From Rhizobiaceae bacterium (GTDB taxonomy: Bacteria; Pseudomonadota; Alphaproteobacteria; Rhizobiales; Rhizobiaceae): a DNA stretch of 64,000 bases. Shown here piece after piece: positions 46,232-63,312 of this stretch. A program made the translations under genes and the position numbers. The DNA is taken from positions 55,538 through 119,537 of the forward strand of contig JABABQ010000033.1 in the NCBI GenBank assembly GCA_014238155.1, written 5' to 3'. The notes below the pieces were generated by a model that made no database searches, was not told the origin of the DNA, and saw only the letters and a list, made by a program, of their open reading frames with translations. How positions within the stretch are numbered: the first letter of the stretch is position 1; each line of letters opens with the position of its first letter.

Positions 46232-46425
46232 CCTCTGTCCTTGGCCTGAGAGACTCGCTGCAGAAGAAACCTCTCCTGAGCTTACACCGTCGGCGCAGGC
46301 CTGTGGGCCTGACTTTCCAGAGTGCTTCGGATCCAACGATCCACAGTCAGCGGTCCTTTTGCCTGAGAGATTATGGGTATTTTCACCTTCGGCGGCGGCT
46401 GCAATTGAACCACCCTCTCCCACTG
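46232..46425 (-). promoter_or_regulatory. tandem glycine riboswitch
   Basis: Minus strand, aptamer 1: GGGAGAG ... CGCCGAAGGUGAAAA ... AAUCUCUCAGGCAAAAGGACCG. Aptamer 2: CUCUGGAAAG ... CGCCGACGGUGUAAGC ... GUCUCUCAGGCCAAGGACAGAG. Directly upstream of gcvT. Confidence 0.9.
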
Positions 46426-46573
46426 AATGTCCGGTTCGCACCGGCCAGCAACAATTAGCTAGTACAATTGGATGCGTCTGTCACCCTACAATTTCGCGAT
46501 CAGAAGTGACGCTTTTTCAACAGCGCAGCGCTGAATTCCAACTCAAACTCAGTTCAATAGCGGGAGCGAAGTC

Positions 46574-47947: not shown

Positions 47948-48156
47948 TCTTTCGTCGGCCAGAAAAACCGCACAAGTAAAATTGGTTTGTTGATGGAGGG
48001 GGACGAAATCGCCGCGCGGTTATCCTCCCGCCCGCGCGGCGTCGTCGATAGAGCGTTAACTCCAGACGACCGGACGGCTCCCTCGAGCTACCGGAATGGA
48101 GGGGAAATTTGCACGGAATCCAATTCGTTGCAATGCCCCAATGCCCCTGAATTAGA

Positions 48157-48909
48157 CTAAAGTAATATAATCGATTTATACGCCTCTGTTTCCAGATGTG
48201 ACACGCCACTCAGTCGCAAAATCGCATTTTGGGGAGACGTCATTATTTCCGAAATCGCGTTGGCCAGGACTGCCTTCAACCTTTGCAGCTTGTCGGCTGA
48301 CCAGTACCGGTTGGTGATATATGGCAGTCCGGGCAGAGGCGGAGTCCATTGCAACACCTTCAGTTGAGCAGCCTGCTCGGGTTGATATGTTTGAAACAAA
48401 TGCCAGCACATTGCATCAATGGCAGCAATATCTGCCCGCCCATCGGCGACCATGGTTGCCGAAAACCGATGACCGCCACTTTTGACCAGATTGTCAAACC
48501 ATTCTTCCGGGCGGCCGACCAGCGGCGTCATGCACCGATAACCGGAAAGCGAATTGTTGCTGTTGAAGGCAAACCGGTCCCGACGACACTCCTGCAGGCT
48601 GGTCACAGGAGAATCGCGTTGAACGATAATCGCACTGCAGTAATTCGGTCCCTGCCAGCCATCAATATCAAAATGCGGTGTGCCGAGCAGTTCCACCTGC
48701 CCTTCCAGACGGGTGATATACGGATAGCCACATGTCTGGCTGAAAAACAAACTGGCTTCCAGCCACCCCTGGCTCTCGTCTTCAAATCGCGAAAGAACTT
48801 CAGGTGGTTGAAATCCGGCTTGTAAAAAATGTTTGTGTAAAATCTGCCAAAGCGCATCCGAATCGGTGCGCAGTTCCGGCCAATCATACATAGGCAGTGA
48901 AGCAATCAC
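48157..48909 (-). CDS. PhnD/SsuA-type periplasmic-binding-protein-fold protein without a signal peptide
   Basis: N-terminus IASLPMYDWPELR and overall size recall the cytoplasmic Phosphonate-bd-like family. 4-nt overlap with the upstream desaturase-family gene. Confidence 0.5.
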   Translation of the reverse strand: MIASLPMYDWPELRTDSDALWQILHKHFLQAGFQPPEVLSRFEDESQGWLEASLFFSQTCGYPYITRLEGQVELLGTPHFDIDGWQGPNYCSAIIVQRDSPVTSLQECRRDRFAFNSNNSLSGYRCMTPLVGRPEEWFDNLVKSGGHRFSATMVADGRADIAAIDAMCWHLFQTYQPEQAAQLKVLQWTPPLPGLPYITNRYWSADKLQRLKAVLANAISEIMTSPQNAILRLSGVSHLETEAYKSIILL

Positions 48910-49826
48910 TCCGAATGTACTTCGTCGCGATACATGAGCGGATGGTCGACCGATTGTTTGGTTCGAAATGCAAACCGCCGCAGAATTTCGCCGTAGCCGT
49001 GGAACAAAGTATGCTCGTTGGCCGCCAGAAACAATTCACTCCGTTCCTGGTACAGAGCCGGCAAATCATACCAGGCGACACCAGGGTTTGCGTGATGAAC
49101 AATATGAAGATTGTTGTTTAGGAAAAGCAGGGCAAATATCGGATGGGCTTCAACGATGGCCGAACGAGCACCAACATTTTCAGCCGCCTGATGCTCGGCA
49201 TAGGAACGCAATGACGTCAGCGACAGGGCGGGATAGGCAACGAAAAGCGCATAGATCCACAGCGGCATAGCAAACAGATTTACAATGATAATCCCAAGTA
49301 CTGCCATGCCTGCCAAATGTAACAACCAGGCCATCCGGACACCGGTTTCGCCAGCAATCAGGCGTCCGACTTCCGTTCGGGTAAAACCATACATCGTCAG
49401 CAATGGCCCGATCACCAGTCGCCCCGCCAACGTATTGTTGATGATAAACAGCCCCCGCATGATCGGCCGCATGGCGGTATATTGACACAACGGCCAAAAA
49501 TAACTTTCCGGATCTTCATAAGGATCGGTCAGGTTAAGGTCGTTGTGATGTTTCAAATGCAAATCGCGGTAGCGCCGATAAGGAAAAATCCCACCAATCG
49601 GCAAGCTGACCAGCACCTCATTGAGCCATCTTGAATTGGTCGGATGGTCGTGGATCACTTCATGCTGCAGCGATGTGTGAAAGGCGGCGAGATAGGGCAT
49701 AATCAGCAGACCTGCAAACCACCACGATGTCTGCCACAACAAACCTCCGGCAATCCACAATCCATAACAGGATGCCATCAGCCCCAACGTTGCCCATTCC
49801 CATTTTTTAGTCATCCCAGCAGTCAT
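48906..49826 (-). CDS. fatty-acid-desaturase-family membrane di-iron protein. Start uncertain; the ORF is open to 49904.
   Basis: His boxes HEVIHDH, HLKHHN, HIVHH; several TM segments. Confidence 0.7.
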   Translation of the reverse strand: MTAGMTKKWEWATLGLMASCYGLWIAGGLLWQTSWWFAGLLIMPYLAAFHTSLQHEVIHDHPTNSRWLNEVLVSLPIGGIFPYRRYRDLHLKHHNDLNLTDPYEDPESYFWPLCQYTAMRPIMRGLFIINNTLAGRLVIGPLLTMYGFTRTEVGRLIAGETGVRMAWLLHLAGMAVLGIIIVNLFAMPLWIYALFVAYPALSLTSLRSYAEHQAAENVGARSAIVEAHPIFALLFLNNNLHIVHHANPGVAWYDLPALYQERSELFLAANEHTLFHGYGEILRRFAFRTKQSVDHPLMYRDEVHSE

Positions 49827-49927
49827 CTCAATCTCACATTCGTGTGATCGCACACTCCGCCTAAAACCTGCGCTGCGCAAGAATTTTTTTGCATACCTAT
49901 GCAATTGTTGCCGCGCTGAGTTAAATC

Positions 49928-49970: not shown

Positions 49971-51005
49971 ATGGCTGGAAAACTAAAATCCTTGATCGAG
50001 GAAAAAGGCGTACTGCTTGCAGACGGCGCAACGGGCACGAATTTCTTCAATATGGGTCTGCTGTCTGGTGATGCGCCGGAATTGTGGAATGAAGATGCAC
50101 CAGAAAAGGTCAAGGCATTGCATCAGAGCTTTGTCGATTCAGGCTCCGACATTATTTTGACCAACACATTTGGTGGCAACCGGCATCGTCTGAAATTGCA
50201 CAACGCCCAGGACCGCTCGCGGGAACTGAACGAAAAGGCTGCCAGACTTGCCCGCGAGGTCGCCGATTCTTCGTCCAAGACTATTCTGGTTGCCGGTTCC
50301 GTCGGGCCAACCGGTGAATTATTCGTGCCGCTCGGCGAGTTAACCCACGACGCCGCCGTTGCTTCCTTCACCGAACAGATGGAAGGTCTAAAGCAAGGCG
50401 GCGCTGACGTGCTGTGGATTGAAACCATGTCGGCGCGCGAGGAAATCGCCGCAGCTGCGGAGGCTGCCAATGCCGTCGGGCTGGAATATATATTCACCGC
50501 CAGTTTTGATACGGCCGGTCGCACAATGATGGGCATCGCCCCTTCGGAACTTGGTGTATTGGCCAACCAACTGCCCACTCCCCCTACCGCCATCGGCGCT
50601 AATTGCGGGGTTGGTGCAACAGATTTACTGTTTTCCGTACTCGACATGACCGAGGCCGGTCCGACAGCAGAAGGTGGCACGATTGCCGTAATAGCCAAGG
50701 CCAATTGCGGCGTTCCGAGGGTCAGTGGCGATCAGGTCCTGTATACCGGCACGCCTGAATTAATGGCCAAATATGCCCAGCTGGCAATCGACTCCGGCGC
50801 CAGGATAATAGGCGGTTGTTGCGGAACGTCTTCTGAACATTTGGTTGCCATGCGGCAGGCCATCGATGCACATATCAAGGGCCAGCGCCCGACGCTGGAA
50901 GAAGTCGTCGCAGCCACCGGTGAACTGGTCAATCAGATTGCGGCGGCCAGGTCCGAAGATGAAGCAGCTGGCCGCAGCGGACGCCGCAGGGGCAGACGGC
51001 GATAG
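49971..51005 (+). CDS. homocysteine S-methyltransferase-domain protein (betaine-homocysteine methyltransferase-like) with an Arg-rich C-terminal tail
   Basis: LLADGATGTN and ILTNTFGGN motifs, C-terminal zinc-site Cys pair (GGCCGT); the tail reads GRSGRRRGRRR. Confidence 0.8.
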   Translation: MAGKLKSLIEEKGVLLADGATGTNFFNMGLLSGDAPELWNEDAPEKVKALHQSFVDSGSDIILTNTFGGNRHRLKLHNAQDRSRELNEKAARLAREVADSSSKTILVAGSVGPTGELFVPLGELTHDAAVASFTEQMEGLKQGGADVLWIETMSAREEIAAAAEAANAVGLEYIFTASFDTAGRTMMGIAPSELGVLANQLPTPPTAIGANCGVGATDLLFSVLDMTEAGPTAEGGTIAVIAKANCGVPRVSGDQVLYTGTPELMAKYAQLAIDSGARIIGGCCGTSSEHLVAMRQAIDAHIKGQRPTLEEVVAATGELVNQIAAARSEDEAAGRSGRRRGRRR

Positions 51006-51038
51006 AGGTCGTGTCCCATTAGTGGATCCCGCCAATCG

Positions 51039-51698
51039 TCATATATATGCCTTCATGTGAAAAGCCTGATGCGGTTTTTGATACTGATGTGCGCTTCCCA
51101 CCGGACAGGCCAGTCGTGCCAGACAGCCGCCTTCCCGGCAGGCCGTGCCCTTTTGCCCTGCAACATGAGATTTGCAGGCCAGATAGTCGTACCCGTCGAC
51201 AGTAAATGCCGATATCGGACAGGTATTCAAACAGGGCTTGTCTGAGCAATTGTCGCATGGGTGATCGAATTTTCGAGTTTTCGGCAGCTCAAAATTGTCA
51301 GCAAAAACCATCGCCGCCCGAAACGCTGTCCACAATCCATATTCAGGGTGAATCAACAGGCCAATTGGCGACTGATCGATCCCCATGGCTGCCCGCCCAT
51401 AGTCCTGAAACGGCCAGTTGGGTTCGCCAAACGGATATCTGACCTGTACCACCAGCCCGGCAGGCAATTTCTCAGCCAGTGCTGAAATAACGCCCACGGT
51501 CCATCGGTTCATCGGGTCAGCCTTACCGTCGGCAAGCGGGGACGCCCCCGAAAATACTTGCCACTGACTGCTGCCGATATTGCCAATCAACAAAGCAGGC
51601 TGGTCATCAATTTCAAACCATCCAAGCGGTAAAAGACCACTGGGCGACAGAATTTCACGAATATCACTTTCGAGTTTTAAAGCAGTATTATCTGTCAT
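51039..51698 (-). CDS. Fe-S (ferredoxin-type Cys cluster) protein of unknown function. Start uncertain; the ORF is open to 51767.
   Basis: C-terminal CDNCSDKPCLNTCP and CKSH...CREGGCLARLACP motifs. Confidence 0.45.
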   Translation of the reverse strand: MTDNTALKLESDIREILSPSGLLPLGWFEIDDQPALLIGNIGSSQWQVFSGASPLADGKADPMNRWTVGVISALAEKLPAGLVVQVRYPFGEPNWPFQDYGRAAMGIDQSPIGLLIHPEYGLWTAFRAAMVFADNFELPKTRKFDHPCDNCSDKPCLNTCPISAFTVDGYDYLACKSHVAGQKGTACREGGCLARLACPVGSAHQYQKPHQAFHMKAYI

Positions 51699-51819
51699 CA
51701 GATCGCCCCGCTGACGCTCATCCCTTGATAGCCGAACGCCAGACTTCCTGCTGAATGAAGTCGGCAATGAACTCCCGACTTCTCACTTCCCGACAATTTG
51801 GCGCCCTGACCTCGCGTGT

Positions 51820-53367
51820 TCAGGTGAAGGCATCGGGCATAGAGTCCTTTTTATTGGCAACATAGGCGTCCAGCGCCTCCCGTCTGGCAGGGTCGAGTTC
51901 CGGTGCAACGTGGTCGTTGATCCACCTGCGGGCAACGTCATTGGCCCGCTGCGGCGCTGTTTTTGCGCCTTCAACTTCCCACTGCTCAAAGGAATTATTA
52001 TCAGCAATTGTCGAGCGGAAAAAGGCGGTCTTGAAGTTCGCCTGAGTGTGATCACAGCCCAGATAATGGCTGCCCGGTCCGACCTGGCGAATGGCATCCA
52101 TCGCCTGACCATGATCGCTGACATCAACTCCGGCCGCCATTTTCTGCTGAGCCGCAAGCTGGTCGCAGTCCATGACGAATTTCTCGTAAGAACTGACCAG
52201 ACCACCTTCCAGCCAGCCAGCTGAATGCAATGCGAAATTAACACCGCCCAACAGGGTTGGGTTAAGCGTATTGGCGCTTTCATAGGCGGCTTGCGCATCG
52301 GGCATTTTTGACCCGGTCAGCGATCCGCCGGAACGGAAAGGCAGGCCGAACTTGCGGGCAAACTGGGCGGCGCCATAAAGCACCTGTGCCGGTTCCGGCG
52401 TCCCGAAGGCCGGCGCCCCGGATTGCATTGAAATGGACGTTGCAAATGTCCCCATGATCACCGGCGCGCCGGGTCGGCACAATTGCGAAAATGCGATCGC
52501 CGCCTGCGCCTCGGCGAGAACCTGGGTCAGAGTGCCGGCAACGGTCACCGGCGACATCGCTCCACCAACGATAAACGGTGAGATAATTGTCGCCTGCCCG
52601 GCCCGCGCATAGACTTTCAGCGCCCCAAGCATGGTGTCATCCATTACCATTGGCGAGTTGATGTTGATCAGCGAGGTGACGACGCAATTGTTATCAACGA
52701 ATTCTTCGCCAAACAGAATTTTCGACATTTCAACCGTATCGGCCGCCCTTTCCGGCGCGGTCACAGACCCCATATAGGGCTTGTCCGACAGGGTCATATG
52801 GGCGTGAACCATGTCCAGATGGCGCTTGTTGACGACAATGTCGACAGGCTCGCAAACGGTTCCGCCGCTGTGATGCATCGCCGGGGCCATATAGGCCATT
52901 TTCACGAAATTGCGGAAATCTTCCATCGTCGCATAGCGACGCTCACCCTCCAGATCAAGAACGAATGGAGGACCATATACCGGCGCAAATACGGTGTTGT
53001 TGCCACCGATCACTACATTGCGCTCAGGATTGCGGGCATGCTGGGTAAATTCACCCGGTGCTGTCTTCATCAGGTCACGGCACAGGCCTTTTGGAAAATG
53101 AACCCGCTCACCCTGCACATCAGCACCGGCATCTTTCAACATTGCCAGTGCTTCCGCATCATCGCGGAATTCAATTCCAATCTCTTCCAGCACCGTATCG
53201 GCATTGGTTTCAATAATTTCCATCGCTTCGTCGTGGAGAATATCGAACGTTGAGATTTTCCGGCGAATATAGGGCAAGTGCTCGGTAACACCGCTGGTGC
53301 GTTCTGCCCGACGGGCTGCTGCACCACCACCACCGCGTCCGCGTCTTGGAGCTCTGGCTTCACTCAT
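51820..53367 (-). CDS. MttB-superfamily (non-pyrrolysine) quaternary-amine:corrinoid methyltransferase with an Arg/Gly-rich N-terminus
   Basis: 515 aa with MttB-family blocks (VLEEIGIEF, INSPMVMDD, AGWLEGGL, FVMDCDQL) and an uninterrupted frame. The N-terminus reads MSEARAPRRGRGGGGAAARRAE. Confidence 0.85.
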   Translation of the reverse strand: MSEARAPRRGRGGGGAAARRAERTSGVTEHLPYIRRKISTFDILHDEAMEIIETNADTVLEEIGIEFRDDAEALAMLKDAGADVQGERVHFPKGLCRDLMKTAPGEFTQHARNPERNVVIGGNNTVFAPVYGPPFVLDLEGERRYATMEDFRNFVKMAYMAPAMHHSGGTVCEPVDIVVNKRHLDMVHAHMTLSDKPYMGSVTAPERAADTVEMSKILFGEEFVDNNCVVTSLININSPMVMDDTMLGALKVYARAGQATIISPFIVGGAMSPVTVAGTLTQVLAEAQAAIAFSQLCRPGAPVIMGTFATSISMQSGAPAFGTPEPAQVLYGAAQFARKFGLPFRSGGSLTGSKMPDAQAAYESANTLNPTLLGGVNFALHSAGWLEGGLVSSYEKFVMDCDQLAAQQKMAAGVDVSDHGQAMDAIRQVGPGSHYLGCDHTQANFKTAFFRSTIADNNSFEQWEVEGAKTAPQRANDVARRWINDHVAPELDPARREALDAYVANKKDSMPDAFT

Positions 53368-53683
53368 GATCTGTCATCCTGGTCAGTGACCACTTAGCAT
53401 GACGCATTTTGAACAATTGCACCATGTTATAATTGAATATCTGGCCCACTATTCCCCCATGCGCGGGGCCGACAACTTTCCCCAAGCGGCACCGATTGAC
53501 GCAATCAAGACGGTGGTCGCAAAGAAGACGCTGTTTTTGGAAAAAATTGCCTTTGGCACAGTAAAGCGAGATGTTATGAACCCAACAGGTCGCAATCGTG
53601 TCTGGCTAAGTCGCTATAGGAAGCGTCGATCATAACTAGCAAGACATAATTACCAACTGAATGGGACGTATCGCACAAGGTTT

Positions 53684-54391
53684 ATGCACATGTCTGACGA
53701 AGAAGAAATCATCCTCTCCGAATTGACAACCGAAGAACTCGTTCTGCAAATGCACGACGATCTGTACGACGGTTTGAGAGAGGAAATCGAAGAAGGCACC
53801 AATATCCTGTTGGGTCGGGATTGGGCACCCTACAAAGTGCTGACGGAAGCACTTGTTGAAGGCATGCGCATTGTCGGCGAAGATTTTCGCGACGGTATCC
53901 TGTTTGTGCCCGAAGTTCTGTTGTCGGCAAATGCGATGAAGGGCGGCATGGCTATATTGCGTCCGCTGCTCGCAGCAACCGGTGCGCCGAAACAAGGCAA
54001 AATGATCATCGGCACCGTAAAAGGTGACATTCATGACATCGGCAAAAACCTGGTTGGCATGATGATGGAGGGCGCCGGATTCGACGTCATCGATCTGGGG
54101 ATCAACAACCCGGTGGAGAATTATCTCGACGCCATCGACGAACATGAGCCCGATATTGTTGGCATGTCTGCCCTGCTGACGACGACCATGCCTTACATGA
54201 AAGTTGTGATCGACACGATGAAGGAAAAGGGTATTCGTGATGATTATACCGTGCTGGTGGGTGGTGCGCCGCTGAATGATGAATTTGGCGAAGCCATTGG
54301 TGCCGATGCCTATTGTCGCGATGCAGCGGTGGCTGTGGAAACTGCCAAAGACTACATGACGCGCAAACATAATCAGCGGGCAAGCGCCTGA
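53684..54391 (+). CDS. corrinoid (B12-binding) methyl-carrier protein
   Basis: DxHxxG motif (GDIHDIGKN), SALLTTT, and GGAP in a Rossmann-type B12-binding domain preceded by a helical cap domain. Confidence 0.9.
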   Translation: MHMSDEEEIILSELTTEELVLQMHDDLYDGLREEIEEGTNILLGRDWAPYKVLTEALVEGMRIVGEDFRDGILFVPEVLLSANAMKGGMAILRPLLAATGAPKQGKMIIGTVKGDIHDIGKNLVGMMMEGAGFDVIDLGINNPVENYLDAIDEHEPDIVGMSALLTTTMPYMKVVIDTMKEKGIRDDYTVLVGGAPLNDEFGEAIGADAYCRDAAVAVETAKDYMTRKHNQRASA

Positions 54392-54475
54392 CGCTAAGCT
54401 GCCTGAACTGACCGCAAGATCAAGGCGTCTTCGGACGCCTTTTTTGCAGGCGCAATAAGATGTTAGGATGGTTGC

Positions 54476-55108
54476 ATGAATCAAACTGACAAGCCTGAAG
54501 AAACCCCCGAACCGGCACCTGTGCGGGTCATCGGCTGTGGTATGATTGCCCGCGAAATTCTTGCGGTAACAGAACAATTGGGCCTCACCAACATTGATCT
54601 GAAATGCCTGCCCGCCATGTGGCATCACTATCCCGACAAAATCGCCCCCGGTGTCGATGCAGCTATAAAAAGCGCCAAAGCCGAAGGGATTGAACAGATT
54701 TTCGTCGCTTATGCCGATTGTGGCACCGGTGGTCATTTGGACATGGTCTGCGACAAACACGGGGTCGAGCGCATTGCCGGGCCACATTGTTTTTCTTTCT
54801 ACATGGGCAATCAGGCCTTTGAAGATCAAAGCGACGACCTAATAACCAGCTTTTTCATGACCGATTTTCTGGCCCGCCATTTTGAGACATTTCTGGTTAA
54901 ACCGCTGGGCATGGACCGTCACCCCGAATTGCGCGAGATGTATTTCGGCAATTACACCCGCATGATTTACATTGCCCAGACGGAAGATGAACAATTGACA
55001 AAAAACGCCGTGCGGGCCGCCGAGTTCCTTGGTTTGGAATTTGAAAAACGTCTCACCGGATACGGCGATCTTTCCAACGCATTGGCAGACATTCCCCAGC
55101 CATCATGA
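54476..55108 (+). CDS. DUF1638-family protein (accessory to corrinoid methyltransferase systems)
   Basis: VIGCGMIAREI, LPAMWHHYPDKI, VAYADCGTGG and GPHCFSFYMG blocks typical of DUF1638 as remembered. Confidence 0.65.
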   Translation: MNQTDKPEETPEPAPVRVIGCGMIAREILAVTEQLGLTNIDLKCLPAMWHHYPDKIAPGVDAAIKSAKAEGIEQIFVAYADCGTGGHLDMVCDKHGVERIAGPHCFSFYMGNQAFEDQSDDLITSFFMTDFLARHFETFLVKPLGMDRHPELREMYFGNYTRMIYIAQTEDEQLTKNAVRAAEFLGLEFEKRLTGYGDLSNALADIPQPS

Positions 55109-55136
55109 TTTGCCAGAGGCAGACCTTGGCAGTATT

Positions 55137-55187
55137 GCAATATATTGCGTCGTTCCACGTGTCGCAAATGAGATATTCATATTGCGA
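55137..55187. promoter_or_regulatory. perfect 12-bp palindrome GCAATATATTGC plus a second inverted repeat (TCGCAA-N14-TTGCGA) sharing the ATTGC half-site; candidate operator
   Basis: Read directly in the 274-bp gap upstream of the virulence-factor-domain/MTHFR-like pair. Confidence 0.35.
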
Positions 55188-55382
55188 TTGTCCGATAATG
55201 TCACCGACATAGCGAGGATTATGATTGGCGACCACCGTGCGTCTGTGATAGGCGATAAGCAGAGCCAATTATTCGAAAATTCTCCTGCGAAGTCGTTTTT
55301 GAAGTTGTCCACCGTCGCCCCTACATAAGGATTGGGGCTGACAAAAGCGCATTTTGGCCACCGAAAACATGTGAGGCTTGAT

Positions 55383-55685
55383 ATGGCACAACTTCAAATC
55401 GTTTACTGGCGGGACATTCCGGCACAGATCATGGTCAAGGCCGGGCGTCGCAATCAGGCCAAACGTGAACTGACATTGCGCTTTACCGAAGCCATCGACA
55501 TGGCCGCCATGCGCACTGGTGCTGCCGAGACCGATGAGTATCTGGCTGAATGGCGTCGTGGTGATGCGGTGTCGGTCGGCGATGATCTGGAAGCGGAAGC
55601 CCAGCAGGCAATGGATGCCATTGAAAGTGAATATGACAAGGACAGATTGGTGGCCCTGGTCAAAAATGGAGGTCGCGAAGCATGA
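55383..55685 (+). CDS. small 'virulence factor'-domain (Pfam Virulence_fact-like) protein that accompanies MTHFR genes
   Basis: MAQLQIVYWRDIPAQI N-terminus. ATGA overlap with the MTHFR-like gene. The ORF track starts at 55332 with TTG. Confidence 0.55.
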   Translation: MAQLQIVYWRDIPAQIMVKAGRRNQAKRELTLRFTEAIDMAAMRTGAAETDEYLAEWRRGDAVSVGDDLEAEAQQAMDAIESEYDKDRLVALVKNGGREA

Positions 55686-56548
55686 CCGCAGCAAAAATTG
55701 GCGCCTCAATCGAGGTCAGCGCAAAACACGTCCATGATGGCAAATTGCACGGTGATATGCTGCCCGGCGGTACCCGTGTCTATATTACCGACGTCGGTGT
55801 TGATCCGGTTGCCGACCTGATTGCTGCGGCTCGCAAGGTGACCGACCTTGGTTACCAGGCCGTGCCCCATATTCCGGCACGCCGAATTGAAAGCGAAGCG
55901 GCGTTGGAAGCCCGCCTGTCGGGCATGGCAAATGAGGCCGGTGTCCGCGACATATTGATCATTGCCGGCGAAGCCGACGAGCAAATGGGCCCCTATCCGG
56001 AAGCCCTTGCCGTGCTGCAAACCGGGCTGATTGACACATTGGGCATCAAATATGTAGCCATTGGCGGGCATCCGGAAGGCAATGTGGCCTATGGCGGCCG
56101 CGACGTGATGCAGGTTTTGAAAGACAAGATTGATTTTGGATTGCAGAGCGATGCCGAGTTTCGCATTGCCACGCAATTTGGTTTTGATGGCCCGAAATTC
56201 ATCGATTGGGCACGCTCGGTCAAACAAGCCGGTATTGATGCGCCGATTCATCTGGGCGTCGCGGGGCCAGCAAAAATCACCACGCTGATCAAATATGCGG
56301 CCATGTGTGGTGTTGGCAACTCATTGAATTTCTTCAGGAAGCGCACCAGCGCCATCGCTCAACTGGCAACAAAACATTCGCCTGAAGACGTCGTCAATCC
56401 GATTGAACAGGCCTGGCGCGAGCAGGTTGGCAACATTGCCCAGCTTCATGTCTTTCCGTTTGGTGGGCTTCAGGCATCAGCCGGCTGGTTGACCGACCGT
56501 GGCAGTTTTCAGTTTTCGAATGAAAGCCAGTCTGCAGTTCTGGCCTAA
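55682..56548 (+). CDS. methylenetetrahydrofolate reductase-family protein (second, divergent paralog)
   Basis: TIM-barrel MTHFR blocks (AVPHIPARR, LIIAGE, IGGHPEG, RIATQFGFD, HLGVAGP). Confidence 0.7.
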   Translation: MTAAKIGASIEVSAKHVHDGKLHGDMLPGGTRVYITDVGVDPVADLIAAARKVTDLGYQAVPHIPARRIESEAALEARLSGMANEAGVRDILIIAGEADEQMGPYPEALAVLQTGLIDTLGIKYVAIGGHPEGNVAYGGRDVMQVLKDKIDFGLQSDAEFRIATQFGFDGPKFIDWARSVKQAGIDAPIHLGVAGPAKITTLIKYAAMCGVGNSLNFFRKRTSAIAQLATKHSPEDVVNPIEQAWREQVGNIAQLHVFPFGGLQASAGWLTDRGSFQFSNESQSAVLA

Positions 56549-56587
56549 CAGTTTGCTGACTCGCCGCCCGGTTGCCCGGTTACCCGG

Positions 56588-57469
56588 TTACCCGACGAGA
56601 GCCGGACGAAATTCGGCGACACTTGTATCAAATTCACCGTTGAAGGCGCGGATCGCGTCGGCAGTCAGATCAACCCTGTTGAGCGTGTAGATATGCAGGG
56701 CTGAGACGCCGTTCTGGGCCAGATCACGCACCTGTTCTTCAATCAGTATGCGGGCCACGTCGCTGTGTTTGGCGCGATCATCGCCAGTCGCTTCAAACAG
56801 TGCATGAAAACGGTCGGGAATGCTGGCACCGCATTTGGCCGAAAACTCAATAATGCGTTCAAAATTGGTAATTGGAATGACGCCCGGCACGATATCCCGG
56901 CGGAACCCCTTTTTCTCCGCTTTGTCACGAAAACGATAAAAATCTTCATTGTTGAAAAAATATTGGGTGATCGCCCGATTGGCCCCTGCATCCTGCTTGG
57001 CGATCAGGTTTGCAATGTCGACATCGGATGACTCAGCCATTGGGTGAACTTCAGGATAGGCCGCAACCGATACATCAAATGGATGCAGTCTTTTCAACCC
57101 GGCAATAGCGTCAGCAACGCTGTCAAATCCTGCCAATTTGCCACCGGCGTCTCCCCTAAGAACAACAAGACGGTGAATCCCCTGTTCCCAAAGCTTTTCA
57201 GCAAATTCAAACAGGCTTTCACGGGAAAAATGGCACAGTGCAATATGGGTGGCTGTTGGGACTTCATTCAGGTTTTGCAGGCTGACAGACCAGTCGAAAC
57301 TGCCCTCAATCGCTGAACCGCCTGCGCCAAACGTCACTGTTTGATACGCCGGTTCGAATCGCCGAAGCGCATGGGCACCAGTCATCAACGAACGTTCGGA
57401 TGAAAGTCCCTTGGGTGGAAAATACTCTACGCTAACAACGGGTTGGTCGAAAATTTTTTCTGATGACAT
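56588..57469 (-). CDS. metF: 5,10-methylenetetrahydrofolate reductase
   Basis: SVEYFPPK, TFGAGGS, VVLRGD, ITQYFFN and PGVIPI motifs. Confidence 0.85.
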   Translation of the reverse strand: MSSEKIFDQPVVSVEYFPPKGLSSERSLMTGAHALRRFEPAYQTVTFGAGGSAIEGSFDWSVSLQNLNEVPTATHIALCHFSRESLFEFAEKLWEQGIHRLVVLRGDAGGKLAGFDSVADAIAGLKRLHPFDVSVAAYPEVHPMAESSDVDIANLIAKQDAGANRAITQYFFNNEDFYRFRDKAEKKGFRRDIVPGVIPITNFERIIEFSAKCGASIPDRFHALFEATGDDRAKHSDVARILIEEQVRDLAQNGVSALHIYTLNRVDLTADAIRAFNGEFDTSVAEFRPALVG

Positions 57470-57584
57470 GGGATATTCCTACGGAAGACACGAAGTTAAA
57501 AAACGATCGAACAGGCTTGCTTCATTTGCGACAGTCAGTGTCGTAAAGTGAAACTACATCAAAAATTTCACATGCACAAGGTTG

Positions 57585-57604
57585 ATATAAAGATTTCTTT
57601 ATGT
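57585..57604. promoter_or_regulatory. palindrome ATATAAAG-ATTT-CTTTATGT (7 of 8 arm positions) in the divergent metF / methyltransferase region; candidate operator
   Basis: Same ATAAAG-N4-CTTTAT core as 49930-49945. Confidence 0.45.
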
Positions 57605-57788
57605 TTATTGCTTGAGCGACACAGAAACATATCGCCAACGTCTAAAAATGAGCCGTTTGGTGTCGCATTTGGCACTGCCTCACTGTTCAAAAGACGATGA
57701 TAGTTGCCATAACAAAATTCCGGCCGCGGCCCTGCGCCAACAACGACCAAACCGCGAAGTGACCGGCAATCCAATTGGAGACAGTGAC

Positions 57789-58754
57789 GTGACCAAGACA
57801 ATCGTTGCATCAGCAAGCAAGGAAGTCGTTATCGGCTTTGATCAGAAATTCTGCGTTATTGGAGAGCGCATCAACCCAACCGGTCGCAAGAAGCTTGCTG
57901 CCGAAATGCAGGCCGGCAATTTTGATACGGTCAAGGCGGATGCCCTGGCGCAGGTTGCGGCCGGTGCCACCATGCTGGACATCAATGCCGGTGTTACATC
58001 GGTCGACCCCAATGCCACCGAACCTGCCCTGCTGGTCCAGACCCTGGAGATGGTTCAGGAACTGGTCGATATTCCCCTGTCAATCGATTCTTCCGTCACC
58101 GCTGCTATTGAAGCCGGTCTAAAAGTGGCCAAGGGGCGACCGCTGGTCAATTCAGTGACCGGGGAGACCGAAAAGCTTGAAGCCATATTGCCGCTGATCA
58201 AAAAATACGATGTGCCGGTCGTTGCCATATCCAATGACGAAACCGGCATTTCAGAAGACCCCAACGTGCGTTTTGAAGTTGCCAAGAAGATTGTCGAACA
58301 TGCCGCAGATTATGGCATTCCCGCTCACGATATTGTGGTTGACCCGCTGGTCATGCCGATTGGCGCCATGGGCACTGCTGGCAAACAGGTGTTTGCGCTG
58401 GTGCGCCGCCTGCGCGAAGAACTCGGCGTTAACACCACCTGCGGTCTGTCCAACGTTTCGTTTGGCCTGCCCCACCGTCATGGCATCAATGCCGCCTTTA
58501 TTCCCATGTGCATCGCTTCAGGCATGACAAGCGCGATCATGAATCCCTGCCGTCCCCAGGAAATGGAAATGGTCCATGCGGCGAATGTTTTGGCGGGCGT
58601 CGATCCCGACTGTATGGAATGGATCAGAAATTACAAAGACCGTGTCGCCCTGCAGGGAACATTCCCCGCAACAATGGCAGGCAATCAGGGCGGAACTCCT
58701 ACACCGTCAGGTGCAGGACGTCGTCGTGGGGGCCGCGCAGCGCGTACGGGATGA
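57789..58754 (+). CDS. pterin-binding methyltransferase (methyl-corrinoid:tetrahydrofolate methyltransferase, MtgA/AcsE/MetH-pterin-domain-like) with an Arg/Gly-rich C-terminal tail
   Basis: VIGERINPTGRKK, MLDINAG, LSIDSS and GLSNVSFGLP blocks; the tail reads GAGRRRGGRAARTG. GTG start chosen after GGAGA; the ORF track starts at 57612. Confidence 0.8.
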   Translation: MTKTIVASASKEVVIGFDQKFCVIGERINPTGRKKLAAEMQAGNFDTVKADALAQVAAGATMLDINAGVTSVDPNATEPALLVQTLEMVQELVDIPLSIDSSVTAAIEAGLKVAKGRPLVNSVTGETEKLEAILPLIKKYDVPVVAISNDETGISEDPNVRFEVAKKIVEHAADYGIPAHDIVVDPLVMPIGAMGTAGKQVFALVRRLREELGVNTTCGLSNVSFGLPHRHGINAAFIPMCIASGMTSAIMNPCRPQEMEMVHAANVLAGVDPDCMEWIRNYKDRVALQGTFPATMAGNQGGTPTPSGAGRRRGGRAARTG

Positions 58755-58933
58755 GGAAAATCAATCGGGGGTCAATCGGAATTCGCCAATCGGTTTCAGC
58801 CATCAAAGCGTGTAAAGGCTAATGGGAATCAAATTGAAGGAGCTTTGTGTGCGGAAACCGGGTGAAGGATTACCGGAGGTAACGTTTATACATCTGAAAA
58901 GCTTTGCAGCGGCCGCATACACAGTCCGGCATC

Positions 58934-60979
58934 ATGTCTGATCCACTCGTCATCTTCACCCCAAGCGGCAAGCGCGGAAATTTTCCGGTTGGTACGCCGA
59001 TACTGGATGCAGCGCGCGATCTGGGTGTTTATGTGGAGTCAGTTTGTGGTGGCCGAGGCATTTGCGGACGCTGTCAGGTGGCCCCGGAATTTGGCCATTT
59101 CGCCAAACACGGCATTGAATCGAAACTCGACGCGGTGTCACAATGGTCGGCCAAGGAAATTCGCTATACCGACAAACGAGGCGAACTGGTTGATGGTCGT
59201 CGCCTGTCCTGTTCGACAACTATTCAGGGTCCGCTGGTTGTCGATATTCCAGCCGACACGGTGGTCAACCAACAAACCATCCGCAAGGCCGTCGACACCC
59301 GTCTGATTGAACGCAATCCGGCAATCCAGATGTGCTTCGTCGAAGTCGACGAGCCTGACATGCACAAGCCTCTGGGAGATCTCGACCGGTTGAAAGCCGT
59401 ACTCGAGCGCGAATGGGGGTATAGCGATATTCTCGTGTCGCAGCACATTTTGCCGATTGTCCAGAAGGTACTGCGCGATGGCAAATGGTCCGTTACCGCG
59501 GCCATCCATCAGGATCTGGAATCCTCCCGCCCGACAATGATTGCGCTTTATCCGGGACTGAAAAACAATGCCTATGGAATTGCTTGTGATATCGGTTCAA
59601 CCACCATCGCAATGCACCTGTCCTCGTTGTTGTCAGGCCGAACTCTGGCGTCATCTGGCACCTCCAATCCACAGATCCGATTTGGCGAAGACGTTATGAG
59701 CCGGGTGTCCTACGTAATGATGAATCCCGACGGGCGCGTTGCCATGTCAAAGGCGGTTCGCGATGCGATCAATGGTTTGATCCAGAACGTCTGCGCCGAA
59801 GCCGGGATTGATCCGACCGATATTCTCGACAGTGTTTTTGTCGGCAATCCGATCATGCATCATCTGTTTCTCGGCATCGATCCGACCGAACTTGGCGGGG
59901 CCCCATTTGCACTTGCGGTTTCCGGTGCCGTCCACACCTGGGCGACCGAACTTGATCTGCACATGAATGAAGGCACCCGCGTCTATATGCTGCCCTGTAT
60001 TGCCGGGCATGTCGGTGCCGATGCCGCTGCTGCAACTTTGTCGGAAGCGCCCCACAAGGAAGTGGAACTGTCGCTTTTGGTGGATGTGGGGACCAATGCA
60101 GAAATCGTGCTCGGCCAACAGGGACGCACCCTGGCCTGCTCGTCCCCCACCGGCCCGGCATTTGAAGGTGCTGAAATTTCCTGCGGCCAGCGTGCTGCAC
60201 CCGGTGCGATTGAACGGGTCAGGATTGATCCGGTCACACTGGAACCCCGCATCCGCATTATTGGCGTCGACATGTGGTCAAACGAACCGGGTTTTGCCGA
60301 ACTGGCAAAAGCCACAGGTGTGACTGGCATTTGCGGTTCCGGTATCATCGAAGTGATGGCAGAAATGTTTCTGGCCGGCATCATCGATGAAGACGGCGTG
60401 CTGGATGGATCGAAAGCTGCCATTTCAGACCGCATATTCGAAGAAAAACGCACTTTCAGCTACCGTCTTTGGGAAACCGAAGATGGCCCCAATATCACCG
60501 TTGCGCAGACCGATGTGCGGGCCATCCAGATGGCCAAGGCGGCGCTCTATGCCGGCGTCAAACTGCTGATGGAAAAACATGGTGCGCAGACGGTCGCCAA
60601 AATTAATCTCGCCGGTGCATTCGGCACCTTTATTGATCCGAAATATGCGCTGGTCCTGGGGCTGGTTCCGGACTGCGAAATCGCCAATGTCCGGGCAGTT
60701 GGAAATGCTGCAGGAACCGGTGCGCGCATGGCGCTGTTGAACCGGGTGCATCGGCGTGAAATCGAAGACACTGTCCAGAGTATCGAAAAAATAGAAACCG
60801 CGCTGGAACCCAAATTCCAGGAACATTTCGTTAACGCAATGGCGTTTCCCAACAAGGTTGATCAATTCCCGCGACTGGAAGCCGAGATCAAATTGCCGGT
60901 GCGGCGGTCTGGGCCGTCGTCTGATGCAGATGACGCCGGCTCACCCAGACGTCGTCGCGGTGGTCGCCGTCGGGCTTAA
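58934..60979 (+). CDS. RACE-type reductive activator of corrinoid enzymes (N-terminal [2Fe-2S] ferredoxin plus ASKHA ATPase domain) with an Arg-rich C-terminal tail
   Basis: CGGRGICGRCQV and LSCST ferredoxin cysteines, ASKHA phosphate motifs (ACDIGSTTIA, LVDVGTNAEIV); the tail reads SPRRRRGGRRRA. Confidence 0.8.
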   Translation: MSDPLVIFTPSGKRGNFPVGTPILDAARDLGVYVESVCGGRGICGRCQVAPEFGHFAKHGIESKLDAVSQWSAKEIRYTDKRGELVDGRRLSCSTTIQGPLVVDIPADTVVNQQTIRKAVDTRLIERNPAIQMCFVEVDEPDMHKPLGDLDRLKAVLEREWGYSDILVSQHILPIVQKVLRDGKWSVTAAIHQDLESSRPTMIALYPGLKNNAYGIACDIGSTTIAMHLSSLLSGRTLASSGTSNPQIRFGEDVMSRVSYVMMNPDGRVAMSKAVRDAINGLIQNVCAEAGIDPTDILDSVFVGNPIMHHLFLGIDPTELGGAPFALAVSGAVHTWATELDLHMNEGTRVYMLPCIAGHVGADAAAATLSEAPHKEVELSLLVDVGTNAEIVLGQQGRTLACSSPTGPAFEGAEISCGQRAAPGAIERVRIDPVTLEPRIRIIGVDMWSNEPGFAELAKATGVTGICGSGIIEVMAEMFLAGIIDEDGVLDGSKAAISDRIFEEKRTFSYRLWETEDGPNITVAQTDVRAIQMAKAALYAGVKLLMEKHGAQTVAKINLAGAFGTFIDPKYALVLGLVPDCEIANVRAVGNAAGTGARMALLNRVHRREIEDTVQSIEKIETALEPKFQEHFVNAMAFPNKVDQFPRLEAEIKLPVRRSGPSSDADDAGSPRRRRGGRRRA

Positions 60980-60994: not shown

Positions 60995-62545
60995 TTAAAC
61001 CTGCCCCTGCGGACGCAGCAGCCATGCAACCCACATGACCAGACCTGCAAACAGCACAAATGGTATCAGGAAGAAGCCGTGACGAAACGCCAGAGCGGCA
61101 CCGGTCGCCCAAATAATCGACACAACAGCCTCACTGATGGTCGCTGTTTTTGACGACACCTGGCGGCGGCGAAACAGGCTGCGACTGCATTGGCTGCGAT
61201 GCCAAAGCTGAATAACCACGGCACAGAAAGTTGCCATGAATATGCCGATCGCCAAACAAACAGCGGCCCGTGGAGAAAACCACAACAATGCGATCAGAAA
61301 CGGCGATGTTGCCAGTCCAACAACCGTCACAACGGCTTCAGCCTTGGCCCTGAGCATGTCCCTGGACGTCACCGGCGAGGTGTCGATCAGTTCATGCGCG
61401 TCTTCACCAGAAATGGTCACCCAGGACAGTCCACCTGCCAATTGACCGGACGCCATCACAACAACCGGGATCACCACATAATAGATGCCAAATCCAGCGC
61501 CATAATTAAACCATAGCAACATTCCAGGCGTCACCAGATAAAGCAGTTGTTGCAAGGATTGGGACAACAGCCAGGGATCCCGTTTCAGCAGGTCCCACTC
61601 TTTACGGCGCAACACCGATCTCATGTTAGAGCCTCGTTGGAACCCGACGAACGCTTCGGTTTTTCCATGCCCTTCAACCAGGCCTGCCGTCGCCAGGGCA
61701 TCATCAGCAAATCGGCGGGTCGAATATGCGACCACCAATACCAGGCACAATCCACTTGCAGCGATAAGCGACAACAGAGGCCAAACATTGCCCATCACAG
61801 CCTGAGCAGGCAACCATATCCAACTACCAAGATCGGGGGCCAACTCAATGGTGTCGGCAGACGTGAACAGCTCCAGTCTGGAAATGCCCTTGCCAAACAC
61901 AATCGCGGCCGCCTGCAGCGAGATAACAAATCCGGCACCAACAATGGCAGAAATAATCTGGGATATGAGCCGGGTCTTGGCCGGTCCGACCGTGCGAAAC
62001 AACAGCAAGGTCAGTAGGACAGCAATACAAGTGGCAAATCCACCCAGCGCAATTATCACCAGATAGGCACTGAACCAACTTGGATGGTCCATAAAACCCA
62101 ATACATTGATCAGGGGTGAAGCAATAAAAATCGCAAAAACAGTCGTTTGCAGTGCCAACATTGACGTACGCACCTGAAACAGGCGTCGCGATGTCGCGGG
62201 CGATGACAGCAATAAATCAAGATCGGAACGGGCATAATAGGCCCGGGTGACGCTTTCAATCGCCTGGCTGAACATCAGCGAAAACAACATCACAGCAAAT
62301 CCGGAAATCATCAGCAGCGTGGCTTTGTCAGCGACAATTCCGCTGGTCAGCGGATTGTCCAGCAGATCTGCCACGAACATATGCATGCCAATGAAAAAGG
62401 CCGCGATTATGGTTCCCACTATCACCATGCGCCGCGGCTTGCCGCCGGTAATGAGAGACGCGAAATCTCGCCAGATCAACCGCGCTTCATGAACGGCATA
62501 CCAGCCAAAGGAATTGCTTTTCGCGGAGAAGGCAGGTCCATTCAT
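60995..62545 (-). CDS. multi-pass membrane permease of an ABC-2-type exporter
   Basis: 516 aa with about 12 hydrophobic segments. 4-nt overlap with the upstream ABC ATPase gene. Confidence 0.6.
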   Translation of the reverse strand: MNGPAFSAKSNSFGWYAVHEARLIWRDFASLITGGKPRRMVIVGTIIAAFFIGMHMFVADLLDNPLTSGIVADKATLLMISGFAVMLFSLMFSQAIESVTRAYYARSDLDLLLSSPATSRRLFQVRTSMLALQTTVFAIFIASPLINVLGFMDHPSWFSAYLVIIALGGFATCIAVLLTLLLFRTVGPAKTRLISQIISAIVGAGFVISLQAAAIVFGKGISRLELFTSADTIELAPDLGSWIWLPAQAVMGNVWPLLSLIAASGLCLVLVVAYSTRRFADDALATAGLVEGHGKTEAFVGFQRGSNMRSVLRRKEWDLLKRDPWLLSQSLQQLLYLVTPGMLLWFNYGAGFGIYYVVIPVVVMASGQLAGGLSWVTISGEDAHELIDTSPVTSRDMLRAKAEAVVTVVGLATSPFLIALLWFSPRAAVCLAIGIFMATFCAVVIQLWHRSQCSRSLFRRRQVSSKTATISEAVVSIIWATGAALAFRHGFFLIPFVLFAGLVMWVAWLLRPQGQV

Positions 62546-63312
62546 GCAGCAAGACTTCCCAAACCGGCTTCTGCGTCCCCTGTTTCAACAATGTCCAGAA
62601 ATACATCCTCCAGGGTCGAACTCTGGTTACTTGAGCGTTCGCGCAGCTCCTGAAATGTTCCTTCCGCCACCAGACGACCATCGGCAATCACACCGATCCG
62701 TTCCGCCATGCGCTCAGCAACCTCCAGAATATGGGTGGTCATGATGATCGTCGTGCCGCGTTTCACACGTGACAACAATACGTCCTTCACCTGCCGGGCA
62801 GAACTGGCGTCCAATCCAGTCAGAGGTTCATCAAGAATGATCAGTTGAGGTTCATGCACCAGAGCACCGGCCAAAGCCACTTTCTGGCGCATGCCCTTGG
62901 AAAATCCACCACACCGTTCCATCGCATGGGGCGCAAGGCCCAACCAATCGACCAGTTCCAACGAACGTTGCTCAGCAATATCTGGTTCAACACCCCAAAG
63001 CCCGGAGACGAATTCCAGATATTCCATCGGTGTCAGCTTGTCGTAAATCATCGGTTCATCCGACACCCAGGCAATTTTGCTTTTCGCTTCAATCGGATCG
63101 CGCATCAGTTTTGTACCAAATACAGAAATTTCGCCAGCATCTGGAAGCAGCAGTCCGGCAACCATACGCAAAGTGGTGGTTTTGCCAGCACCATTTGGCC
63201 CAAGCAGCGCGTAAAATTCGCCACCATAAACTTTCAGATCAAGTCCGTTTACCGCCGGGCGATCAAAACTTTTCTTCAGACCGGTGATTTCCAATGCAAG
63301 TGATGATGTCAA
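62542..63312 (-). CDS. ABC transporter ATP-binding protein (ABC-2/DrrA-like)
   Basis: Walker A GPNGAGKTT, signature FSKGMRQKVALA, Walker B LIILDEP. Confidence 0.85.
   Translation of the reverse strand: MTSSLALEITGLKKSFDRPAVNGLDLKVYGGEFYALLGPNGAGKTTTLRMVAGLLLPDAGEISVFGTKLMRDPIEAKSKIAWVSDEPMIYDKLTPMEYLEFVSGLWGVEPDIAEQRSLELVDWLGLAPHAMERCGGFSKGMRQKVALAGALVHEPQLIILDEPLTGLDASSARQVKDVLLSRVKRGTTIIMTTHILEVAERMAERIGVIADGRLVAEGTFQELRERSSNQSSTLEDVFLDIVETGDAEAGLGSLAA

Follow-up and report, generated by a model that had tools for sequence, protein, structure and literature searches.

A compact locus from a marine Rhizobiaceae bacterium with the gene content of an alphaproteobacterial MtgBCDE methyltransferase system

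How does a bacterium with a plausibly aerobic lifestyle come to carry a complete, anaerobe-style corrinoid methyltransferase system? This question is raised by a 64,000-nt stretch of DNA from a Rhizobiaceae bacterium of marine metagenomic origin (assembly GCA_014238155.1, contig JABABQ010000033.1, positions 55,538-119,537 of the forward strand; hereafter the window), for which an original prediction, made from the sequence alone, had described an unexplained system of this type amid O2-dependent enzymes. Using a listing of open reading frames (ORFs) and crude gene calling, followed by Pfam and NCBIfam scans, we recovered every gene of that prediction in its place and with strong family scores (Table 1). 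The locus is very probably an alphaproteobacterial MtgBCDE system, that is, a modular cobalamin-dependent methyltransferase organized around one shared carrier, MtgC. It is thus largely ordinary, being a further, unusually compact example of a known system that carries a few undescribed accessory features.

The modules MtgB (PF06253), MtgC (PF02607 and PF02310), MtgD (PF00809) and MtgE (PF02574) are encoded by separate genes within positions 49971-58754, and each scores well above the Pfam cutoffs; the modules of the locus are packed into 11 kb. The B12-binding domain of MtgC contains DIHDIG at residues 115-120, which corresponds to the DxHxxG motif of base-off/His-on corrinoid proteins. The MtgB/MtgC/MtgA plus RamA logic that had been proposed for the locus is correct. 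The other hallmarks of MtgBCDE systems are found as well: a RamA-like protein and a DUF1638 protein for reactivation, an extra methylenetetrahydrofolate reductase (MTHFR), demethylation genes and a cobalamin biosynthesis (cob) cluster, all colocated. For mtgD, the likely start is the Met codon at 57648 or one after it.

The module that changes the interpretation of the locus is MtgE, known as 'bhmt' in rhizobia, which matches an NCBIfam model named 'betaine-homocysteine S-methyltransferase' (NF005718) and is separated by 33 bp from the neighboring gene for an Fe-S protein. Consecutive stretches of the MetH model TIGR02082 are matched by MtgE, MtgC and MtgD, one stretch by each protein, and the locus therefore holds a full set of parts for a split, B12-dependent methionine synthase; the presence of mtgE makes the system bidirectional. 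No match to the MetH reactivation domain PF02965 was obtained in any locus protein scanned. The dual role in methionine synthesis was missed by the original prediction because mtgE lies just outside the interval that it covered.

The same gene set has been described in aerobic bacteria. In Phaeobacter inhibens, separate methyltransferase, pterin-binding and B12-binding proteins are needed for methionine prototrophy, together with a RamA-like protein combining ferredoxin and DUF4445 domains and with DUF1638 (Price 2018, PLoS Genet, PMC5764234). In Ruegeria pomeroyi, MtgBCDE, together with RamA, DUF1638 and MetF2, was shown to serve both in demethylating glycine betaine and in making methionine (Mausz 2025, PNAS, PMC12478193). 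According to the same source, knockouts of mtgC and mtgD abolish methionine synthesis as well as growth on glycine betaine, MtgD is bidirectional between the methyl-corrinoid and tetrahydrofolate (THF), the rhizobial 'Bhmt' is the MtgE module, and the proteins induced by N-osmolytes comprise MtgB1 and MtgB2 (both PF06253), MtgC, MtgD, RamA, DUF1638 and MetF2. In the light of these reports, the original notion of an anaerobe-style system that lacks an explanation in its aerobic host is out of date. The accompanying statement, that such systems were characterised biochemically mainly in anaerobes, is narrowly true for in vitro biochemistry, the aerobic systems having been studied by genetics and proteomics (PMC5764234, PMC12478193).

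For our interpretation, gene content, motifs and synteny come from the window itself, whereas P. inhibens and R. pomeroyi provide what is known of how MtgC, MtgD and MtgE function, of the phenotypes linked to the RamA-like and DUF1638 genes, and of induction by glycine betaine; by analogy we infer the same functions in this organism, a substrate for each MttB and a direction for each MTHFR. In the proposed scheme, MttB1 would demethylate glycine betaine, or a methylated osmolyte related to it, and load the methyl group onto Co(I)-MtgC, and MttB2 would probably do likewise with the same or another quaternary amine. MtgD would hand the methyl group from MtgC to THF, and the methyl-THF formed would be oxidised to methylene-THF that feeds one-carbon oxidation and assimilation; of the adjacent MTHFRs, the S6MTHFR-like one, whose gene is translationally coupled to that of the PF13769 protein, is the most likely candidate for this step. 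The leftover dimethylglycine would be processed by a dimethylglycine dehydrogenase (DMGDH) and then by the glycine cleavage system, both encoded upstream. In the reverse direction, MtgD would load MtgC from methyl-THF and MtgE would methylate homocysteine to methionine, the two together acting as a split MetH. The oxidation of Co(I) to Co(II), expected in air, would be repaired by the activase, using ATP and its [2Fe-2S] domain, with DUF1638 aiding the reactivation, and cobalamin would be supplied by the riboswitch-controlled cob cluster in the window.

A narrower scheme would limit mtgC, mtgD, mtgE, ramA and DUF1638 to a split methionine synthase, the MttB genes being either passengers that use another corrinoid protein or inactive. 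The split MetH role was indeed established first and without involvement of MttB (PMC5764234), and mtgE is located inside the cluster, but four observations make this scheme very unlikely: i) most loci have mttB and mtgC as a divergent pair; ii) the mtgC and mtgD mutants of R. pomeroyi still fail on glycine betaine when methionine is supplied (PMC12478193); iii) a catabolic-type MTHFR, DMGDH and the glycine cleavage genes are colocated; and iv) MttB has an Arg-rich tail of the same kind as the tails of MtgD, MtgE and RamA.

The conservation of the locus was assessed by comparing the window proteins with 80 related loci (L001-L080) by tblastn, counting matches with E <= 1e-10 that cover at least half of the query length. 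The conserved block has the order mtgE, Fe-S gene, mttB and then, divergently, mtgC, DUF1638, PF13769, in some cases an MTHFR, mtgD and the activase. This order recurs in ~50 Hyphomicrobiales genomes, including Sinorhizobium, Rhizobium and Shinella, and the same block is present in one gammaproteobacterium, Halioglobus (L077). Among the 80 loci, matches were counted for MtgC in 58, DUF1638 in 52, the Fe-S protein and MtgD in 49 each, PF13769 in 48, the RACo-type activase in 43 and MtgE in 42. The recurrence of the block order and these counts argue that the cluster is a real, selected unit and no chance co-occurrence. The top match of MttB, at 93% identity, comes from a Rhizobiaceae metagenome-assembled genome, followed at ~72% by the cultured, aerobic Sinorhizobium, Rhizobium, Shinella, Pararhizobium and Hoeflea. 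With nearest relatives that are aerobic Hyphomicrobiales of the Rhizobiaceae/Phyllobacteriaceae type, and with desaturases and a PhyH dioxygenase in the window, the aerobic lifestyle suggested originally is plausible.

An Rfam scan of positions 49971-60979 matched no regulatory RNA family, and the promoters presumably lie in the intergenic region between mttB1 and mtgC. Two additional ORFs were treated as spurious: an antisense ORF of 397 aa (53636-54829) that has no Pfam match, and an ORF of 99 aa (55029-55328) that has neither a Pfam match nor a counterpart in the 80 loci.

Co(I) is oxygen-sensitive, and every aerobe that relies on classical MetH has to cope with the same difficulty. The upkeep of Co(I) in air, which had been presented as an open puzzle, is for this reason no special one, and what differs between the systems is the repair device. 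Repair by an ATP-driven activase of the RamA/RACo type is the published explanation, which by analogy would apply to the present locus. In the activase of the window, residues 14-120 match the fdx_isc model, and four cysteines of the N-terminal ferredoxin-like part (Cys48, 54, 57 and 103 in the numbering of the listed ORF) are compatible with a plant-type [2Fe-2S] site. The score of the protein reaches neither the cutoff of AcsV (374 vs 800 bits) nor that of archaeal RamA (102 vs 500 bits), and it thus shares the RACo/RACE architecture and is an equivalog of neither.

The second reactivation component, DUF1638, has eight invariant residues (Cys21, 44, 82, 92 and 105; His50, 51 and 104). Its AlphaFold2 model, with a predicted local distance difference test score (pLDDT) of 81 and a predicted template-modelling score (pTM) of 0.57, consists of two alpha/beta subdomains; a Foldseek search of PDB with this model returned nothing significant (best E = 0.03, template-modelling score (TM) < 0.35), and a sequence search of PDB gave no match. 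The original statement that the role of DUF1638 is undescribed is correct for its mechanism and outdated for its genetics, given that methionine auxotrophy was published for P. inhibens, along with the co-occurrence of RamA-like and DUF1638 genes across Alphaproteobacteria, including Sinorhizobium meliloti (PMC5764234).

The sensitivity of Co(I) could also mean that the system is active under anoxic or micro-oxic conditions only, as an anaerobe-style module in a facultative organism, which is what the original prediction implied, and the cob cluster does contain genes usually tied to the oxygen-independent route (CbiX, CbiD, CbiG). We find this exceedingly unlikely, in view of a dedicated ATP-dependent reactivase in the locus, of the O2-dependent desaturases and dioxygenase interleaved with it, and of the evidence from aerobes: the homologous system was assayed in aerobic P. 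inhibens and R. pomeroyi (PMC5764234, PMC12478193), the growth of R. pomeroyi on glycine betaine depends on mtgB, mtgC and mtgD in air, and the Mtg system is reported to be highly expressed in the oxic surface ocean as a major route of N-osmolyte demethylation and a major B12 demand (PMC12478193).

The window encodes two MttB-superfamily paralogs that share 38% identity. Direct inspection of the sequence revealed an internal stop (amber/pyrrolysine (Pyl) codon) in neither of them, and both belong to the non-pyrrolysine branch of the superfamily. A Pyl-type trimethylamine methyltransferase was considered for MttB1 and discarded, since its score with the respective model TIGR02369 is 265 bits against an equivalog cutoff of 525 and it has no internal stop. 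The top PDB match of MttB1 (833 bits) is 4YYC, which was deposited as 'putative trimethylamine methyltransferase' and which we take to originate from S. meliloti. The next match is MtgB of Desulfitobacterium hafniense (2QNE/9YCE, ~393 bits; E = 8e-117 vs 2QNE). The residues that bind glycine betaine in the latter enzyme, Y97, R312, H348 and F356 (PMC13080624), were mapped through the PDB alignments. MttB1 has Y, R, H and G at these positions, thus keeping three of the four, and MttB2 has S, R, H and G, keeping R312 and H348; a Trp is found four residues ahead of the F356 position in both paralogs. Neither paralog keeps all four residues, in agreement with the earlier remark that the MttB substrate cannot be read from the sequence, and the authors of the active-site study themselves consider the motif a minimum set that is not sufficient (PMC13080624).

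The assignment of the two paralogs to substrates can be made in more than one way. MttB1 might act on another methylated compound, such as proline betaine, carnitine, gamma-butyrobetaine, choline or a sulfonium compound, with MttB2 as the glycine betaine enzyme, or the reverse. The low identity between the paralogs and the incomplete residue sets are consistent with such a division, as is the gene context of mttB2, which heads a same-strand run of mttB2, cupin, DMGDH and PhyH genes (35044-40667, +) and whose orthologs adjoin DMGDH in L047 and L069; moreover, genomes bearing mtgC have up to seven MttB paralogs, presumed to differ in substrate (PMC12478193). On the other hand, it is MttB1 that keeps Y97, R312 and H348, MttB2 lacking the aromatic residue at Y97, and it is mttB1 that is fixed beside mtgC in 58 of the 80 loci; moreover, glycine betaine induces two MtgB paralogs in R. 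pomeroyi (PMC12478193). We give this division a real chance, somewhat below even, and keep glycine betaine or a related osmolyte as the proposed substrate of MttB1. A salt-induced mttB gene was noticed already in 2014 in aerobic Mesorhizobium.

The locus contains two MTHFR genes. The canonical one is a type 2, E. coli-like MetF that scores 229 bits with TIGR00676 and 207 bits with NF006950, both under the equivalog cutoffs, and it occupies this position in the closest relatives only (L001, L007, L009). The top PDB match of the divergent one is S6MTHFR (7XG9, 168 bits, E = 3e-48), with E. coli-type MetF entries at E ~0.2. S6MTHFR represents the 'type 4' class, which oxidises methyl-THF without use of NADH and pairs with THF-dependent demethylases (PMC11868366). 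From the hallmark motifs of this class, namely the beta2-alpha3 loop (L48-P49), R78 and the beta8-alpha11 loop (P268-F269), the divergent MTHFR keeps the equivalents of R78 and P268-F269 (in a PFGG loop) and has V-G in place of L48-P49. Its sequence is closest to the S6MTHFR class, and we propose that it oxidises methyl-THF to methylene-THF; a catabolic role fits this enzyme.

The start of the divergent MTHFR gene is overlapped by 4 bases by the stop of the gene for a small PF13769 ('Virulence_fact') protein, an arrangement of translational coupling. This protein contains neither Cys nor His. A homolog search returned 4453 matches (79-94% identity among the matches listed), and a search for a PDB relative found none. 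In 43 of the 47 loci with PF13769, an MTHFR-type gene is located 3' of it on the same strand within 900 bp: a 466-aa MTHFR-domain protein in 34 loci, an S6MTHFR-like protein in 8, and a MetV-like PF12225 protein with a separate MetF in 1. Besides the pair in the window (55383-56548, +), examples are found in L032 (4219-6201) and L077 (12938-14725). With three MTHFR arrangements across these loci, PF13769 stays constant while the MTHFR type changes. Of this pair, whose role had originally been called undescribed, the MTHFR is closest to a published class, and for the PF13769 accession no mention turned up in a literature search.

Several points weigh against the proposed dual-function interpretation. 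The sequence is present in DNA metagenome runs only, and its functions are predicted here from the genes. With 206 vs 370 bits for NF047996 and 178 vs 310 bits for NF047995, MtgC does not reach the cutoffs of the two models for the anaerobe protein and therefore belongs to a lineage different from that of anaerobe MtgC, in agreement with the phylogeny of Mausz et al. (PMC12478193). The Gly at the F356 position of both paralogs and the Ser at Y97 of MttB2 make the suggested substrate less certain, and the V-G pair replaces residues that block NADH binding in S6MTHFR (PMC11868366), so that the direction proposed for the divergent MTHFR is a prediction. Finally, our view spans 64 kb, and a classical MetH elsewhere in the genome would bear on the need for a split synthase.

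The Fe-S protein between mtgE and mttB1 is annotated publicly as 'ferredoxin' or 'hypothetical'. Its AlphaFold2 model (pLDDT 95.6) gave human MMACHC/CblC as the top Foldseek match in PDB (E = 3e-6, TM ~0.6), followed by QueG and then by PceA/RdhA, and its significant PDB neighbors are cobalamin-binding proteins of one fold only. The modelled structure is of the CblC/QueG/RdhA cobalamin-binding fold. Eight cysteines in the C-terminal region are invariant in 44 homologs, matching two predicted [4Fe-4S] sites as in QueG and RdhA. The gene adjoins mttB in 49 of the 80 loci. A tie of the whole CblC-like family to mtg genes was considered and ruled out: homologs at 41-47% identity are located beside thiolase/GATase or ALAD genes, and since these distant relatives occur in unrelated neighborhoods, the family is not Mtg-specific and the link is limited to the Hyphomicrobiales orthologs. 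Judging from the model, the protein may process, reduce or load cobalamin, possibly for MtgC.

Another common feature of the modules is a set of charged terminal tails (Table 1). Both MttB paralogs, MtgD, MtgE and the activase carry Arg/Gly-rich tails, and MtgC has an acidic N-terminal extension. The tails were scored by windowed criteria for Arg clusters, the net charge of the terminal 30 residues being too blunt. The pattern spans the Hyphomicrobiales, Rhodobacterales and gammaproteobacterial loci, and none of the tails falls within the stretches aligned with D. hafniense MtgB or with the profiles for AcsV, MtgC and the pterin domain. Among the control proteins (DUF1638, PF13769, the Fe-S protein, the MTHFRs, DMGDH, GcvT, ABC proteins and desaturase), C-terminal Arg clusters number 0 or 1 per family and, by a second criterion, at most 4/50 (desaturase 2/5). 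A literature search by term turned up no description of such a pattern. The opposite charges suggest that interchangeable modules may be tethered or docked electrostatically, by way of putatively disordered tails, on the shared MtgC; this tethering could stand in for the covalent linkage of MetH, with several modules competing for one carrier. As a joint proposal, which we put forward tentatively and consider rather doubtful as a whole, the locus would have undescribed features of assembly and cofactor handling, namely charge tethering, CblC/QueG-like handling of cobalamin, and a PF13769 protein that travels with a methyl-THF-oxidising type of MTHFR.

The rest of the window supplies the context of the locus. 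The confirmed O2-dependent or oxidative enzymes of the original prediction are two FA_desaturase proteins, PhyH and DMGDH; its P450 amounts to a weak, partial match to the heme region inside the cob cluster. In this cluster, genes of the late-cobalt route (CobN, CobW) are mixed with a two-domain CbiX, CbiD and a CbiG-methylase fusion. The small cupin between mttB2 and DMGDH matches the DMSP_lyase family; neither this cupin nor the PhyH of the mttB2 run has a counterpart among the 80 loci. Beside mtgE are located an M24 creatinase/prolidase-like peptidase, a phosphonate-type periplasmic binding protein and a membrane fatty-acid desaturase, a trio that recurs in L001, L024 and L038. Downstream of the activase, a 516-aa protein of no clear family, with a weak ABC_tran_2 match, whose gene is kept in the closest relative L001 only, is followed by an ABC ATPase, and the two may form a substrate transporter.

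Table 1. Coordinates of the Mtg locus features, terminal tails and other features of the window (window numbering)
Feature	Coordinates	Strand	Evidence and remarks
mttB1 (mtgB-like), non-Pyl MttB-superfamily substrate:corrinoid methyltransferase	51820-53367	-	PF06253, 754 bits, profile positions 3-500 of 500
mttB2, second MttB-superfamily paralog	35044-36741	+	PF06253, 728 bits; likely start 35095 or later
mtgC, shared corrinoid (cobalamin) carrier	53684-54391	+	B12-binding_2 (60 bits) + B12-binding (94 bits)
mtgD (MtgA-like), pterin-binding methyl-corrinoid:THF methyltransferase	57612-58754	+	Pterin_bind 103.6 bits; NF005719 396 bits vs cutoff 259
mtgE ('bhmt' in rhizobia), homocysteine-binding S-methyltransferase module	49971-51005	+	PF02574 (S-methyl_trans) 202 bits; NF005718 504 bits vs cutoff 338
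RamA-like / RACo-type ATP-dependent reductive activase	58904-60979	+	RACo_linker 78 bits, Raco_middle 165 bits, RACo_C_ter 299 bits (ASKHA); likely start 58934
DUF1638 protein	54476-55108	+	PF07796 93.5 bits; 52/80 loci
PF13769 ('Virulence_fact') small protein, 100 aa	55383-55685	+	PF13769 80 bits
Divergent MTHFR, 288 aa	55682-56548	+	PF02219 27.6 bits
Canonical bacterial MetF (type 2, E. coli-like)	56588-57469	-	PF02219 201 bits
Fe-S protein, 219 aa, predicted CblC/QueG/RdhA-like fold	51039-51698	-	listed ORF to 51767; likely start Met24
Divergent intergenic region, mttB1/mtgC	53368-53683		316 bp; no Rfam match
MttB1 Arg-rich tail	N-terminus, 53298-53349		RRGRGGGGAAARRAER; 80/81 orthologs
MttB2 Arg-rich tail	N-terminus, about 35200-35260		3/4 orthologs
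MtgD Arg-rich tail	C-terminus, 58710-58751		GAGRRRGGRAARTG; example GRRRGGRAAR; 23-27/49 orthologs by criterion
MtgE Arg-rich tail	C-terminus, 50964-51002		...GRSGRRRGRRR; 41/43 orthologs
Activase Arg-rich tail	C-terminus, 60940-60976		SPRRRRGGRRRA; Arg cluster in 36/36 orthologs
MtgC acidic extension	N-terminus, 53690-53740		SDEEEIILSELTTEEL in window; consensus DDEIILSELSDEEL; 58/59 orthologs
Dimethylglycine-dehydrogenase-type enzyme (DAO + GCV_T)	37377-39851	+	DAO 227, GCV_T 193, FAO_M 55 bits
gcvT-gcvH-gcvP glycine cleavage operon	41886-46432	-	Pfam; tandem glycine riboswitch leader
Tandem glycine riboswitch upstream of gcvT	46225-46432	-	two RF00504 aptamers, 63 and 55 bits
Cobalamin biosynthesis cluster	3370-26038		CobN, CobW, CobU, HupE/UreJ, CobQ, CbiX, CbiC, CbiD, CbiJ, CbiG-methylase fusion, several TP_methylase, CobB-like
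Cobalamin riboswitch	24208-24429	-	RF00174, 94.8 bits
Partial P450 heme-region match	8383-9543		35.7 bits
Small cupin	36744-37349		DMSP_lyase-family match, 41.8 bits
M24 peptidase, binding protein and desaturase trio	46574-49904		
516-aa protein and ABC ATPase	60995-63312	-	weak ABC_tran_2 match in the 516-aa protein

The value of this analysis is mainly corrective, in that the locus should no longer be treated as an 'anaerobic' system that calls for an explanation in an aerobic host. The details that it adds are the S6MTHFR-like MTHFR, the CblC/QueG-like fold of the Fe-S protein, the linkage between PF13769 and MTHFR, and the charged tails. The compact locus sets every published component beside three conserved accessory genes, the CblC/QueG-like, PF13769 and S6MTHFR-like ones. 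Should the tails or the Fe-S protein prove important, this would go some way towards explaining the use of a single carrier by separate modules and the maintenance of an active cofactor in air.

Comparison with known systems delineates what is shared and what is particular to the window. The Fe-S protein resembles CblC, QueG and RdhA, its 8-cysteine C-terminal region recalling the two [4Fe-4S] sites of the last two; it differs in being much shorter than QueG and RdhA, in having predicted Fe-S cysteines that CblC lacks, and in having distant kin unlinked to mtg genes. The divergent MTHFR is located beside a demethylase system that produces methyl-THF, as has been proposed for the class of S6MTHFR of Sphingobium lignivorans SYK-6 (Yu, Commun Biol 2025, PMC11868366); in contrast to S6MTHFR, the window enzyme has V-G for L48-P49, a partner demethylase that is corrinoid-dependent and not of the LigM type, and a coupling to PF13769, of which the homologue-family section and the Discussion of that paper make no mention. 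The locus covers the same four functions as E. coli MetH (homocysteine-binding, pterin-binding, B12 cap and B12-binding); in contrast to MetH, its modules are separate polypeptides, have no S-adenosylmethionine-dependent reactivation domain and have an MttB methyl donor plugged in.

Desulfitobacterium hafniense and Eubacterium limosum are strict anaerobes. The MtgB/MtgC/MtgA and RamA proteins of the former and the MtpB, MtcB and MtyB proteins of the latter follow the same route, from a quaternary amine to a Co(I)-corrinoid protein and on to THF, with an ATP-dependent activase. In contrast to the anaerobe Mtg systems, MtgC of the window fails the NCBIfam cutoffs, F356 is replaced by Gly, the modules have Arg-rich tails and MtgC an acidic one, and MtgE adds methionine synthesis. 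With the split synthase of P. inhibens the locus shares separate homocysteine-methyltransferase, pterin-binding and B12-binding genes, as well as RamA-like and DUF1638 proteins in place of PF02965; Price 2018 drew no link to MttB or betaine, whereas in the window mttB is divergently paired with mtgC. In the window, the cob cluster is succeeded by the demethylation genes and then by the mtg block. This vicinity is as reported for S. meliloti, where the cob operon is found together with MtgBCDE and both reactivation modules (PMC12478193). The Mtg system of R. pomeroyi DSS-3 has the same modules, two MtgB paralogs and an extra MTHFR in a likewise aerobic, alphaproteobacterial marine host. The words 'ferredoxin' and 'virulence' are absent from the main text of Mausz 2025 (PMC12478193), and neither term searches of that paper nor the sections consulted turned up the three accessory genes. 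In contrast to R. pomeroyi, where the modules are scattered, the present locus groups them within 11 kb and adds to them the genes for the CblC/QueG-like Fe-S protein, the PF13769 protein and the S6MTHFR-like MTHFR.

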